Shown here in pieces: positions 60,230-64,000 of a stretch of 64,000 nucleotides of DNA. A model generated the notes under the pieces. The model saw only the letters and a list, made by a program, of their open reading frames with translations. It did no database searches and was not told where the DNA came from. The DNA is from Rhodospirillales bacterium (lineage in GTDB: Bacteria; Pseudomonadota; Alphaproteobacteria; Rhodospirillales; UBA2165): positions 8 through 64,007 of the forward strand of contig CBDBMR010000008.1 of the NCBI GenBank assembly GCA_965207535.1, in the 5' to 3' direction. Made by a program: the position numbers and the translations under genes. Position 1 is the stretch's first letter; every line of letters starts with the position of its first letter.

Positions 60230-60559
60230 ATGGCCGACTCGCTCGCCGAACGGGGCAAAGCCCACGAAACTCAGTTCAAGCTCACCCAAGAACAGGAATT
60301 CAAGGCGGAGGCCCGGCGCAACCGTCTGCTCGGCGAATGGCTCGCCGAACGCTTCGGGCTGCCCGAGAGCGAGGTCGCCGACTATGCCAAATCCGTGGTT
60401 GTGGCCGACCTCGAAGAGCCCGGTGTCGAAGACGTCATGCGCAAGGTGATGAAGGACATCGCCGAGCACGAGGTGGACATTTCCGAGGACGAGGTCCGGG
60501 AAAAGCTGGACGGGCTCATGGACGTCGCGAAACAGCAGATCGCCGACGAGGCCTCCTGA
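60230..60559 (+). CDS. DUF1476 / F1Fo-ATPase inhibitor zeta subunit
   Basis: ERGKAHETQF...EFKAEARRNRLLG...ADLEEPG.EDV.RKV. Confidence 0.88.
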   Translation: MADSLAERGKAHETQFKLTQEQEFKAEARRNRLLGEWLAERFGLPESEVADYAKSVVVADLEEPGVEDVMRKVMKDIAEHEVDISEDEVREKLDGLMDVAKQQIADEAS

Positions 60560-60624
60560 CGCCCTCAACCTCCGACGCTTCCGTTTCGTTGCGCTCGGAC
60601 GATTGCGGGCGTAGAACGGGGGCC

Positions 60625-61251
60625 ATGGGTAGAGAAGATCAAACACCGACCGAACCCGGACAGGCGCTGGTTTCCGGCGTCCTGTCGTTCTGGTTCGGCG
60701 AGCCGGGCGACGGGGATTTCGATGACAAGGGCCAATGGTGGTTCCAAGCCGACCCGGAATTGGATGCCGAGATCGGGCGGAAGTTCATGGACGCTTACCG
60801 GCAGGCCGCGTCCGGCGGGCTCGATCACTTGAAGGAAACGCCGGACGGCTGCCTGGCCTTGATCATTCTGCTGGACCAGTTCTCCCGCAACCTGTTCCGG
60901 GGATCGGCCGAGGCCTTCGCCGCCGATGGCAAGGCGCGGGAGCTGGCCGATTACGCGATCTCGCAGGGTTACGACCGGGAATTCTCCAGGAACCGGAAGC
61001 TGTTCACCTATTTGCCGTTCGAGCATTCGGAGGACCTTGCCGATCAGGAGCGGGCGGTCGAGCTGATAGGGACGTTGGACGATGAGCATCTTAGCGGGTA
61101 TGCCGTCCAGCACCGGGATATCATTGCCGAATTCGGGCGGTTCCCGCACCGCAATGCCGTTCTCGGCCGGGAGAGCACGGCGGCGGAACTCGAGTTCCTC
61201 GAAGACCCCAAGAACTCGTTTGGCCAAACGAAGGATGACGACAGGAAATGA
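60625..61251 (+). CDS. DUF924 family protein
   Basis: VLSFWFG, LDQFSRN.FR, YLPFEHSE, FGRFPHRN. Confidence 0.92.
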   Translation: MGREDQTPTEPGQALVSGVLSFWFGEPGDGDFDDKGQWWFQADPELDAEIGRKFMDAYRQAASGGLDHLKETPDGCLALIILLDQFSRNLFRGSAEAFAADGKARELADYAISQGYDREFSRNRKLFTYLPFEHSEDLADQERAVELIGTLDDEHLSGYAVQHRDIIAEFGRFPHRNAVLGRESTAAELEFLEDPKNSFGQTKDDDRK

Positions 61252-61865
61252 CCGAAGACATTCGACAAAAGGTATTGGACTTCTGGTTCGGCGAACCGGG
61301 AAGCGAAGAGCACGGCACCTTTCGAATTATCTGGTTCCGGGGCCGGACGCCGGAGTTCGATCAGGAAATTCGCGACGGATTTATGGAGATCCACGAGAAG
61401 GCCGCCGGCGGCGAATTCGACCATTGGATGGAGACCAAGGAGGGCTGTCTGGCGCTTTGCATCCTCCTGGACCAGTTCCCGCGCAACATGTTCCGGATGA
61501 CGCCCAGGGCCTTCGCGACCGATGCAAAAGCCCTCGAGGTCGCCAAACACGCCGTCGCCAACAAGTGGGACGAAGAGGTCTCGGCCATCGAGCGGCACTT
61601 TTTCTATCTTCCTTACGAACATTCGGAAGAGTTGGCGGATCTCGATGCGGTCACCGAACTGGCGCCCAAGACGGGCCGGGAGCGCACGGCCAAGGCGGTC
61701 GCGGAGCACCGCGACCTGATCGTCAAGTTCGGACGCTACCCCCACCGCAACGAAATACTGGGCCGGGAATCGACGCCGGAAGAGATCGAGCACATGAAAA
61801 ACGGCGGCAAGAATTTCGGCCAGGGCGCGACGCCCGACCCCATCCCCGACGAGGAAGAGGATTAG
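61248..61865 (+). CDS. DUF924 family protein (tandem paralog)
   Basis: VLDFWFG, LDQFPRN, YLPYEHSE, FGRYPHRN. Confidence 0.92.
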   Translation: MTEDIRQKVLDFWFGEPGSEEHGTFRIIWFRGRTPEFDQEIRDGFMEIHEKAAGGEFDHWMETKEGCLALCILLDQFPRNMFRMTPRAFATDAKALEVAKHAVANKWDEEVSAIERHFFYLPYEHSEELADLDAVTELAPKTGRERTAKAVAEHRDLIVKFGRYPHRNEILGRESTPEEIEHMKNGGKNFGQGATPDPIPDEEED

Positions 61866-62797
61866 CGATTGTTCAGTTGTTTCAAGTGGGCTCGGCAGCG
61901 CTGGTAGATGCCGTCAAAGAAGTCTGGCTCGTTTCTTCGTTGCGCGGCAATTTTTCCCAACAAACTCCTTGTTTCTGGGAGTGAGAGCTCTTCCACAGGT
62001 CTCCGGCCAATGAGTTCTCGAATCTCTGTTCGTTTTGAGTTCTTCACCCGTAGGCCACCGCCTGGATGGACCGCTGAACCCGTTATCGTCTTGTACTCGT
62101 TTGCGGCGTAGCGCTTAGTTTTGGAGAATTTGAGCCGAAGATCGACCGGACTCAGCATCTTGTTGATGTCTCGCGTCCACCCTCTTGGGAAGGGTTTGTC
62201 GCGGCTAAATGTGATGTCGTCTACCCAGAGCGACATTACAATGTCTTGGGCCGTCGCCGCCGCATTAATTCGATTGAATGACTTTTGATAGGCCCAGTAC
62301 GCCATATCCTGGCTTGTCGATGTTCCAGTCGGAATGTGGCCTTTGTATGTAACTAGATCAGCAAGCAATGTGGCAACGTCGCCGACCATATCGAATTCGG
62401 CCTTAAAACATTCAATCACAAACTCCCGTTTTGTACTTTGGAAGAAGCTATCTATGTCAACGCTGACCAGCCAAGCCTCTGGATGATGTAGTAGCGCATT
62501 GTCGATTGCGCTGACACCAACCTTGCCTGACATTAGCCAAGATGGTGTTTCAATTCGTCTGATGAGGCTGTGCAGGCGCTGCTGTATAGCTGCTAGACGG
62601 GGAAGAGGCTCTTCAATGAGACGATCTTTTCTGCCAGGTTCCCGTTTCCACCATTCCTCATAATTTTCTCCCTTTTGCAAGGCTCTCAATTCGCTGGGAG
62701 TGGTCTGAAGAATTCGGGCCAAATCGGCTTTTTTGCCAATTCGATAGAGCGGTGATTTGTTGATTGGCACCAAATTAGGTTGTTTGGGCTTCGACAA
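61862..62797 (-). CDS. Retron-type reverse transcriptase
   Basis: RLIEEP, NALLH (region X NAxxH), DIDSFF, HIPTGTSTS, LWVDDITFS, KTK, ITG (VTG-like region Y). Confidence 0.88.
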   Translation of the reverse strand: MSKPKQPNLVPINKSPLYRIGKKADLARILQTTPSELRALQKGENYEEWWKREPGRKDRLIEEPLPRLAAIQQRLHSLIRRIETPSWLMSGKVGVSAIDNALLHHPEAWLVSVDIDSFFQSTKREFVIECFKAEFDMVGDVATLLADLVTYKGHIPTGTSTSQDMAYWAYQKSFNRINAAATAQDIVMSLWVDDITFSRDKPFPRGWTRDINKMLSPVDLRLKFSKTKRYAANEYKTITGSAVHPGGGLRVKNSKRTEIRELIGRRPVEELSLPETRSLLGKIAAQRRNEPDFFDGIYQRCRAHLKQLNNR

Positions 62798-63068
62798 TCT
62801 GGAGAAACCTAATCAATTTCTGTCGCATGAATGAGCGGGACTGCGATTTCGGCTCCGATTTCTTTCCCAATTCTTCAGAGAAAAAGAGAATGGCCGAGGG
62901 CGAAGTCTCAAAGAATTCAGCATATTTGTTGATCGTTTCAATTGACGGTACTCGCTTACCTTTTTCTATCTCAGAAATATGGCTCGCAGACAGACCGAGT
63001 GCCAAAGCAAGCTCCACAGTCTTGCAGTCATGAAATACCCTGATCAAACGAAGTGCTTCGCCCAGCAT
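62775..63068 (-). CDS. XRE/Cro-type HTH protein of the retron operon
   Basis: LRLIRVFH...ELALALGLSASHISEIEKGKRVPS; overlaps the RT start. Confidence 0.88.
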   Translation of the reverse strand: MLGEALRLIRVFHDCKTVELALALGLSASHISEIEKGKRVPSIETINKYAEFFETSPSAILFFSEELGKKSEPKSQSRSFMRQKLIRFLQIVEAQTT

Positions 63069-63097
63069 CGCTACGTTCTCGCAGTTAGAAGGAAAAA

Positions 63098-63271
63098 CTA
63101 GTCGTTCTCAGTCAGATGCTTTACGCAAAAAAGCACGAAGCGAATGATTCTGCGGCGAATCGATTTCACCCAGCGCTTCTTTGACGATCGCCAATTTGCG
63201 CACATCTGCCGAGAAACAACACACAGTCGCACCGTTAGGTGGATAGTCGTCTGTTGTTGACGATCGTCCAT
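63098..63271 (-). CDS. 57-aa basic small protein, candidate retron effector
   Basis: Strong SD AAGGAGG 5 nt before the ATG; MDDRQQQTTIHLTVRLC...KKRWVKSIRRRIIRFVLFCVKHLTEND. Confidence 0.55.
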   Translation of the reverse strand: MDDRQQQTTIHLTVRLCVVSRQMCANWRSSKKRWVKSIRRRIIRFVLFCVKHLTEND

Positions 63272-63274
63272 AGC

Positions 63275-63560
63275 CGCCTCCTTTCCCGTACTTCTAGAAG
63301 CACCCCATGTGCTCCTTTCTGAGTACGTCCTCGTGGGAAAGGCTGGGTCTCGGCTGTGCTTGTCGTTTCTCCTTCTCATTTTGCCGCGATCAGCAGTCCT
63401 CGCTGATCGCGGCGCCGACGCACGTCCCATCCATGGAAACCGTGTCAGTCATCCACAGAGGGAATTGCGCCATGCACCTCAAAAATAGTTGGGCCGAAGC
63501 CCGCGAGCGCAGTCTGCGCTCCAGTCGTGTCCGAGGACAATGACCCTACCTAACGGATGA
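63275..63560 (-). ncRNA. Candidate retron msr-msd non-coding RNA
   Basis: Hairpins at 63505-63521, 63491-63502 (C-UUCG-G), a perfect 12-bp stem at 63383-63413 and a long stem at 63280-63342. Boundaries approximate. Confidence 0.55.
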
Positions 63561-63645
63561 GGGGACCCTACTCGAGTCGCTTAAGAACGTCTACAAAAAA
63601 GTTCTAAAATAGAGAATTTTTTTCTCAGGGCGTGTTCACATTGGA

Positions 63646-63849
63646 CTACCCAAAGACGCGGGCGAAGATGGCGTCCACGTTCTTGGTCTGATAGCCGAGA
63701 TCGAACAGCGCCGTCAGGTCGTCTTCCGGCAGCTTGGCCGTGACGTCGGCGTCGCCTTTCAGCGCGGCCAGAAAATCGGCGCCGTTCTTCCACACGTCCA
63801 TGGCGTTCCGCTGGACCGCCGCGTACGCGTCCTCGCGGCTCATGCCGCC
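63646..63849 (-). pseudogene. purB: 3' fragment of adenylosuccinate lyase gene
   Basis: GMSREDAYAAVQRNAMDVW...FLAALKGD.DV...LFDLGYQTKNVDAIFARVFG. In-frame TAG and non-PurB sequence lie immediately upstream. Confidence 0.75.
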
Positions 63850-64000
63850 CCCGCGCCCCTACCACCGCATCGCGCCGGTGAGCATCGCGCCGTGGGCCGG
63901 CTCGCCGGTGCCCGCGCTCTCGCGGCGGGTGGCGTCGAGGTTGATGCTCCATCCGCTCGCCGCGCCCGTATCATCGTCGGTGCTGCTTGTTTTCTTTGAT

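Follow-up and report, generated by a model that had tools for sequence, protein, structure and literature searches.

A probable type VI retron with a small-protein message inside its RNA in a Rhodospirillales genome

Introduction

Near one end of a 64,000-nucleotide stretch from a Rhodospirillales bacterium (lineage UBA2165; GenBank assembly GCA_965207535.1, contig CBDBMR010000008.1, positions 8 to 64,007 of the forward strand), which we call the window, a block of low GC content separates a DUF924 gene from purB sequence. What is this element, is it complete and how might it work? A first-pass annotation had seen here a retron cassette, a low-GC block with a minus-strand reverse transcriptase (RT), a helix-turn-helix (HTH) protein, a 57-aa open reading frame (ORF) and a structured RNA, and each of these was found where it had been placed. 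We consider it rather likely that we have here a complete type VI retron, which would act against phages by abortive infection and be controlled by an RNA switch of the kind described for Retron-Vpa2.

Type VI retrons were defined by their HTH protein, with a size range of 91-110 aa, and their small auxiliary proteins were given as 75-79 aa (Mestre et al. 2020, PMC7736814). Two preprints describe how such retrons work. The hybrid RNA of Retron-Vpa2, about 470 nt long, holds the msr-msd together with the coding sequence of a toxic small protein (SP) of 55 aa. Both its ribosome-binding site (RBS) and its start codon lie in stems, an inverted repeat stands at the 3' side, and 7-nt direct repeats, called highly conserved in sequence, occupy the msd loop and the riboregulator loop. 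RT, HTH and RNA form a complex, the HTH protein represses reverse transcription, and phage triggers lead to an SP translation that depends on the multicopy single-stranded DNA (msDNA) (Zhang et al. 2025, 10.1101/2025.10.22.683967). In Retron-Sen3, the SP was shown to be a toxin, and SP and HTH follow a post-translational toxin-antitoxin logic that is triggered by inhibition of RecBCD; type VI is split there into sub-lineages by SP cluster (Garcia-Rodriguez et al. 2026, 10.64898/2026.04.27.721009).

The reverse transcriptase and the HTH protein

61862..62797, minus strand: retron RT, 311 aa, TTG start, without a fused domain (PADLOC RT_VI)
62775..63068, minus strand: Cro/C1-type HTH protein of 97 aa, with a 23-nt overlap into the start of the RT

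The best PADLOC match of the RT was the RT_VI profile at full length (4.1e-71, 237.5 bits, profile positions 1-274 of 279). The runner-up, RT_X, reached 97.8 bits, and the 25 matches listed for this ORF, of 40, were all to retron models. Retron RTs are recognised by the motifs NAxxH, a VTG-like triplet and a catalytic xxDD. In the translation these read N100-A101-L-L-H104, I238-T239-G240 (ITG) and V192-D193-D194 (VDD), and with the exception of I238 the motif residues are invariant in 38 aligned homologues (alignment A1). Among solved structures, all 12 matches were retron RTs (E = 2.9e-9 to 4.9e-4), none of them labelled type VI. General models scored the protein low: Pfam RVT_1 gave 20.8 bits, under its cut-off of 29.6, the NCBIfam retron models stayed far under their own cut-offs (St85, for example, with 90.7 bits against 235), and NCBIfam Drt3a was matched at E = 0.031 only. 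The gene is single-copy in its genome. By its PADLOC profile match, the RT would belong to the type VI clade (retron clade 3).

PADLOC also assigned the HTH protein best, and at full length, to the type VI profile, HTH_VI (1.8e-27, 93.4 bits, profile positions 1-91 of 92); Pfam HTH_3 was matched at 6.1e-11. These two assignments bear out the earlier proposals of a retron RT and of a type VI system with an HTH protein. With 97 aa, the HTH protein lies within the type VI size range, and its gene stands upstream of the RT gene and overlaps it. The same 23-nt overlap with a TTG start of the RT recurs in two related loci, L015 and L023. Conservation of the protein is high (mean column identity 64%, alignment A6), and the gene is under purifying selection in comparison with its relatives. 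A predicted complex of HTH and SP scored 0.28 against a mark of 0.32, which counts neither for nor against their binding.

The 57-aa reading frame encodes a conserved small protein

63098..63271, minus strand: SP, 57 aa, the presumed toxic effector, with its start at an ATG inside a 110-aa frame

A Shine-Dalgarno (SD) sequence, AGGAGG, lies 6 nt upstream of the SP start. The family alignment (A4) has 25 rows, the window and 24 relatives of 46-66 aa, and with it AlphaFold2 predicted a single long helix (pLDDT 80). The gene for this small protein, helical in the model, is located between the non-coding RNA (ncRNA) and the HTH gene. Pairwise dN/dS values were 0.18-0.34, and by this measure the SP ORF is a real gene under purifying selection. 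Its synonymous divergence (pS) was 0.53-0.74, against 0.74-0.94 in the HTH gene, a damping that fits a coding sequence also constrained as paired RNA.

Every related locus with enough upstream DNA has a small ORF directly upstream of the HTH gene. The order small ORF, HTH, RT is held in seven metagenome or genome loci (L015, which is identical with L026, L023, L024, L025, L035, L038 and L040) and in nine further loci, found in genomes that belong to the same class or order (L042-L049 and L002). Close relatives have in common an GAGAAAGGAGG-like RBS and the SP pattern TVRLCVVS...WRS...R..VLF. The small proteins of L042-L049 and L002 differ: they have 50-62 aa, a basic N-terminal part and, after it, a C-terminus that is long and hydrophobic; that these distant proteins cannot be aligned with the SP family of the window is in line with the RT lineage tracking the SP type.

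Scans with Pfam and PADLOC gave no family for the SP. Twenty called proteins of 57-66 aa, none of them named or in a Pfam family, were retrieved by a profile search, and 11 matches came from scanning 1.84 billion representatives. The effector had been described beforehand as unannotated, which is right for the Pfam and PADLOC families. Its kind, however, is known: the effector would be the 57-aa ORF itself, because the hybrid-RNA layout of ncRNA, SP, HTH and RT has been published for Retron-Vpa2 and Retron-Sen3.

A structured RNA locks the SD sequence of SP

63087..63558, minus strand: hybrid RNA of about 470 nt, consisting of the structured leader and the SP coding region; 5' end inferred from the -10 box, 3' end set by the outer arm of the long-range repeat
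63523-63545: H1, weak, 4 of its 9 pairs departing only by unpaired cells; not relied on
63505-63521: H2, well supported
63414..63490, minus strand: variable long hairpin behind a U-rich linker, between H3 and H4, the presumed main part of the msd
63383..63413, minus strand: hairpin H4 with repeat copy 1 in its loop; 11 pairs, 6 with two-sided changes; a perfect 12-nt inverted repeat (I3)
63365..63376, minus strand: 5' arm of H5, the long-range repeat that brackets SP (I6), pairing with 63087-63098
63351-63359: H6, pairing with the SP codons at 63221-63229, well supported
63277..63346, minus strand: H7, the SD-sequestering hairpin, in which the anti-SD CCAGCCTTTCCC (63335-63346) pairs with GGGAAAGGAGG (63277-63287)
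63087..63098, minus strand: 3' arm of H5, sharing its first base with the SP stop codon

The 541 nt upstream of the HTH gene folded with a minimum free energy (MFE) of -232.5 kcal/mol (z = -5.81), and none of 100 shuffles was equally stable. Window positions 63066-63564 were aligned with the matching stretches of L015, L023, L024 and L038 (alignment A2), on which RNAalifold found 96 consensus pairs in 13 helices. In this structure 89.9% of the cells are paired, against 38-48% with the partners slid by 1-3 columns; the observed percentage is inflated by the fact that these five sequences also gave the structure. Two-sided changes were found in 33 pairs, against 2-10 after sliding by 1-3 columns, and the observed score was reached by none of 500 shuffles. 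The covariation supports the structured RNA that the first-pass annotation had proposed.

In each of H4, H5, H6 and H7, more than 90% of the cells are paired. H5 has 12 pairs, 7 of them with two-sided changes (91.7% of cells paired), and H7 has 11, one of them with a two-sided change (90.9%). In the five sequences the SP ribosome-binding site is sequestered and an inverted repeat stands around SP. The sequence of the variable hairpin is unconserved, yet a hairpin of -17.6 to -31.5 kcal/mol is formed in all five loci, as expected for a template of reverse transcription; by analogy with Vpa2, it is presumed to be the msd. A covariance model (R1) reaching from H4 to the start codon recovered the five training loci and, at E = 3.7e-5, the untrained locus L044. 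The Rfam scan of 61000-64000 gave five weak matches, all far under their gathering scores, and no curated RNA family.

Two repeat copies change in concert

63396-63402, minus strand: repeat copy 1, CGAGGAC, in the H4 loop
63327..63333, minus strand: repeat copy 2, CGAGGAC, in the loop that directly follows the anti-SD strand on its 3' side

In the window, 7-nt direct repeats are found in the loop of the presumed msd and in the riboregulator loop. The words shared by the two copies in related loci are the following.

Window and L015: CGAGGAC
L024: CGGAGACG
L038: AGAGGAC
L023: TGAAGA
L044: ACGAGGC

Both copies change in concert between lineages. More distant relatives were searched for an exact repeat of at least 7 nt in position windows that had been preset from the five close loci, with a tolerance of 15 nt to either side. 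Eleven loci entered this check (L025, L040, L042-L049 and L002); the five training loci, L026 (the same as L015), L035 (short upstream DNA) and two loci in which SP was not located (L050 and L051) were left out. Such a repeat was present in six of the 11, each with its own word, whereas dinucleotide shuffles gave a mean of 1.08 and none of 300 reached six. In the MFE folds of the window, L024, L044 and L049, copy 1 falls within the loop of a hairpin and copy 2 next to the SD-locking stem; in those of L025 and L048 the placement is less clear.

We tentatively suggest that the two copies may act as a lineage-private key and lock which change together (CGAGGAC, CGGAGACG, ACGAGGC, CGATGAC, CGTTGCG, CAGATGG). 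A concerted change is expected if translation of the toxin is unlocked only when the first repeat, copied into DNA, pairs with the second, and it is unexpected if a conserved protein reads both copies.

Relatives of the retron

At E <= 1e-10 the RT has 77 relatives, the best of them 90% and 78% identical and the remainder at most 60%. Nearly all are metagenomic, and one is named as coming from an alphaproteobacterial metagenome-assembled genome (MAG). Any RT match was found in five of 60 related genomes (best 31% identical) and in one of the six other genomes of the same genus (28% identical); the retron itself is present in one of the seven genomes of the genus. In a sample of 400 other genomes of the same class, eight had a type VI RT at E <= 1e-40. 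That the system is divergent, as the first-pass annotation had it, is true in part only, given an RT with relatives this close and with type VI RTs elsewhere in its class.

A scan of genome contigs with the single protein found no relative, and eight loci when it was repeated with alignment A1. DNA around RT relatives was obtained for these eight loci on genome contigs, one of them close, and for 18 loci on metagenome contigs. Viral contigs contributed two loci (L050 and L051) with RTs 36-37% identical to that of the window; prophages or phage-like elements may therefore carry related retrons. Plasmids gave 107 records, all below 60% identity. When related RTs were scanned with PADLOC, those of L042-L049 inside the scan and that of L002 outside it, RT_VI was the best match in 13 of 13 (235-322 bits). 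In the maximum-likelihood tree of 51 RTs, a family of 39 rows (support 100/98) contains the window, grouped with P0001 and P0002; this family is separate from the other relatives in the class.

Promoter and candidate operator

63565..63593, minus strand: presumed promoter, with -35 TAGACG (63588-63593), a 17-nt spacer and -10 TAGGGT (63565-63570)
63612..63626, no strand: palindrome GAGAA-N5-TTCTC, about 18 nt upstream of the -35 box

The presumed promoter aligns with TTGAC(A/T/C) -35 boxes and TA-rich -10 boxes of four related loci, and the 17-nt spacing is common to all five. A promoter scan reported three promoter-like sites (expected 1.5), inside genes or on the opposite strand, and the promoter/terminator scan reported no terminator. 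The palindrome is the sole exact match in the window. It has counterparts of the form GCGAA-N5-TTCGC in L015 and L024 and imperfect ones in L023 and L038; its half-sites in the window have changed symmetrically, from GCGAA/TTCGC to GAGAA/TTCTC. We regard it as a candidate operator for the HTH protein. A palindrome, an operator or autoregulation is not mentioned in the main texts of the preprints of Zhang et al. and Garcia-Rodriguez et al.

The retron is an insert between DUF924 and purB sequence

61856..63645, minus strand: whole retron insert, about 1.79 kb, low GC, between the stop codon of DUF924 and that of the purB 3' fragment
61248-61865: flanking DUF924 gene (Pfam 2.5e-60)
63646-63843: flanking ADSL_C piece (adenylosuccinate lyase C-terminus; Pfam 9.7e-18)

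Across about 61900-63650 the GC content is 0.44-0.56, against 0.60-0.72 in the flanks. A genome of the same genus (G003) has the empty site: the stop codons of DUF924 and purB abut there, overlapping in CTAG, exactly at the position of the insert. The locus is an insert. Limits of 61862-63600 had been given for the cassette, which is roughly right; by comparison with the empty site the insert is slightly wider, about 61856-63645. In the contigs of sequencing run X3, 61852 is joined to 63653 with 13 other letters between them, and this empty junction, at a depth of about 9, occurs beside a low-depth piece of the retron. Run X6 has a retron copy on a contig of 2065 nt whose flanks are different; over 61875-63580 the copy shows 118 differences and 4 gaps (about 93% identity). 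No integrase or transposase was found within the retron block.

The flank beside the retron had been read as the end of purB. It is purB sequence, but only a 202-nt 3' fragment (63646-63848); the full gene of 435 aa lies on another contig of the same genome (G000 contig C6, 145758-147062; L052). Over the final 202 nt the two copies are 96% identical, with 8 differing positions. The contigs that bear them end about 1.5 kb and about 0.2 kb from them, an assembly gap separates the ends of contigs C6 and C8, and a rearrangement or an island could sit between the purB copies. An integrative island that targets the purB 3' end was considered as a route by which the retron arrived.

Just past the purB fragment, at 63851-63944, lies a repeat of about 90 nt. 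Copies of 80-91% identity occur on four other contigs of the same genome (C14, C16 twice and C17, with a 33-nt piece on C5), and it is also present on four contigs of G003; on C14, two halves of the stretch match 1.5 kb apart. The contig probably breaks because of this repeat.

At the same junction, three other genomes of the genus have an unrelated spacer of 184-323 bp, and in G006 (L013, 2617-3979) the place is taken by 1.36 kb of DNA containing an ORF of 371 aa, a putative transposase as judged by eye from its translation. The junction of the convergent DUF924 and purB genes appears to be a recurrent insertion site. Two DUF924-like genes stand in tandem at 60337-61865; the second, which is the one scanned with Pfam, ends at the retron, and its last codons read PDEEED instead of the PDED of the empty-site form.

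Discussion

How would such a retron act? The locus resembles Retron-Vpa2, which belongs to the 'Large' lineage of type VI, in the order ncRNA, SP, HTH, RT, in a hybrid RNA of about 470 nt containing the SP gene, in the stem-held RBS, in a 3' inverted repeat that folds back and in 7-nt direct repeats in the msd loop and the riboregulator loop. The SPs are also alike, with 55 aa there and 57 aa here and with a hydrophobic C-terminal stretch. This likeness is drawn from the published description of Vpa2 and not from the sequence of its SP, HTH or RNA. As all the sequence-level features of Vpa2 are found together with a short, Vpa2-like SP, we filed the locus as type VI and prefer a mechanism of the Vpa2 type. 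Differences lie in the host, which is of high GC and whose nearest named relatives are alphaproteobacterial MAGs, in contrast to Vibrio, and in the repeat sequence and SP family (TVRLCVVS...WRS...VLF), which may be specific to this lineage.

In the preferred mechanism, one promoter would give rise to the roughly 470-nt hybrid RNA. Its 5' part would be the retron ncRNA, with conserved recognition hairpins, the variable template hairpin and H4, its 3' part would be the message for the 57-aa helical toxin SP, and the HTH and RT genes would follow downstream, translationally coupled. At rest, the SD sequence of SP would be locked in its hairpin, and the HTH protein would restrain reverse transcription, the toxin or both. 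Upon infection, msDNA, the product of the RT, would accumulate. The 5' part of this msDNA, being complementary to the 7-nt repeat beside the anti-SD, could pair there and open the hairpin, so that SP would be translated and the infected cell stopped. We infer the synthesis of msDNA, the trigger, the toxicity of SP and the role in defence on the model of Retron-Vpa2.

Several observations weigh against this mechanism. The RNA structure comes from only five sequences and was counted on the alignment from which it was derived. Neither the priming guanosine nor the a1/a2 pairing was located in the RNA; GGGTC near the 5' end and GACCC downstream of H6 could form the latter, and because both are invariant they offer no covariation to examine. 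The word shared by the two repeat copies of L023 has 6 nt only, and five of the 11 distant loci (L042, L043, L045, L046 and L047) are without a repeat in the preset windows. The presumed promoter agrees with the consensus at 8 of 12 positions and was not flagged by the consensus scan. Finally, a type VI retron can work otherwise, as Sen3 makes its single-stranded DNA (ssDNA) and SP constitutively and is controlled after translation (10.64898/2026.04.27.721009).

A retron of the Sen3 kind would use its HTH protein as a post-translational antitoxin, phage inhibition of RecBCD would free the toxin, and the RNA would serve for folding and for recognition by the RT. For the present locus we think this unlikely, though it deserves serious weight. 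Both share the SP-HTH-RT module in identical order, and an upstream ncRNA with a variable internal hairpin. The inverted repeat around SP and the selection on the SP coding sequence to pair as RNA, both reported for the Sen3 lineage (cl2075), are present here too, and the high conservation of the HTH protein would suit an antitoxin. However, the SPs of cl2075, a lineage found mainly in Beta- and Gammaproteobacteria, are 75-79 aa long, of which about 25 residues form an extension at the N-terminus, whereas the SP of the window has 57 aa without such an extension and its relatives have 46-66 aa; judged by length alone, it stands outside cl2075. In Sen3 the ssDNA is constitutive and control is exerted after translation, but the conserved SD-locking hairpin and the co-varying repeat pair seen here fit control at the RNA level better.

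It is improbable that the cassette is decayed or domesticated, without a function in defence, and persists as a toxin-antitoxin addiction module or in silence. Such a fate would agree with the lack of mobility genes and with the presence in a single one of the seven genomes of the genus, but the three ORFs are intact with their catalytic and family-invariant residues, SP and HTH are under purifying selection and the RNA pairs are kept. That the RT is of another class (Abi/DRT/UG, group II intron or diversity-generating retroelement) with a superficial retron likeness, as the scores of Pfam RVT_1 and the NCBIfam retron models under their cut-offs might suggest, is very improbable indeed against PADLOC matches that, among those listed, are all retron with RT_VI far ahead, 12 of 12 structure matches to retron RTs, Drt3a at E = 0.031 only, and the NAxxH and ITG motifs.

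Taking the Vpa2-type mechanism again as the preferred one, the locus can be set beside canonical retrons such as Ec86/Eco1, Ec78 and Ec67. They have in common the RT fold and motifs, an ncRNA upstream of the genes and the role in abortive infection. Canonical systems have an abundant msDNA that acts as an antitoxin, and a distinct protein, from an enzyme class that is known, serves as effector. In type VI, by contrast, the message of the effector lies inside the retron RNA, and the part proposed for the msDNA is to switch on the toxin. The concerted change of the repeats across lineages and the candidate operator may be new points; the variation of the repeats may already be contained in Fig. 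S4 of Zhang et al., which treats the covariance model and the repeats.

For annotation, the locus is an example of a 57-aa effector and an RNA that escape Pfam, NCBIfam and Rfam. It is a clean, minimal type VI retron of 1.79 kb from a high-GC genome with a known empty site, and its small family of relatives permits a comparative analysis of the RNA. Its main value is the support that it lends to a mechanism so far described in preprints only, in which the message of a toxin lies within the retron RNA and is switched on by the reverse-transcribed DNA. If the repeats are indeed key and lock, the proposed pairing of msDNA and riboregulator would be supported by comparative data alone and would also hold in a sub-family from Alphaproteobacteria that has an SP cluster of its own. 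Type VI retrons would then be naturally orthogonal, reprogrammable translational switches that are gated by ssDNA.

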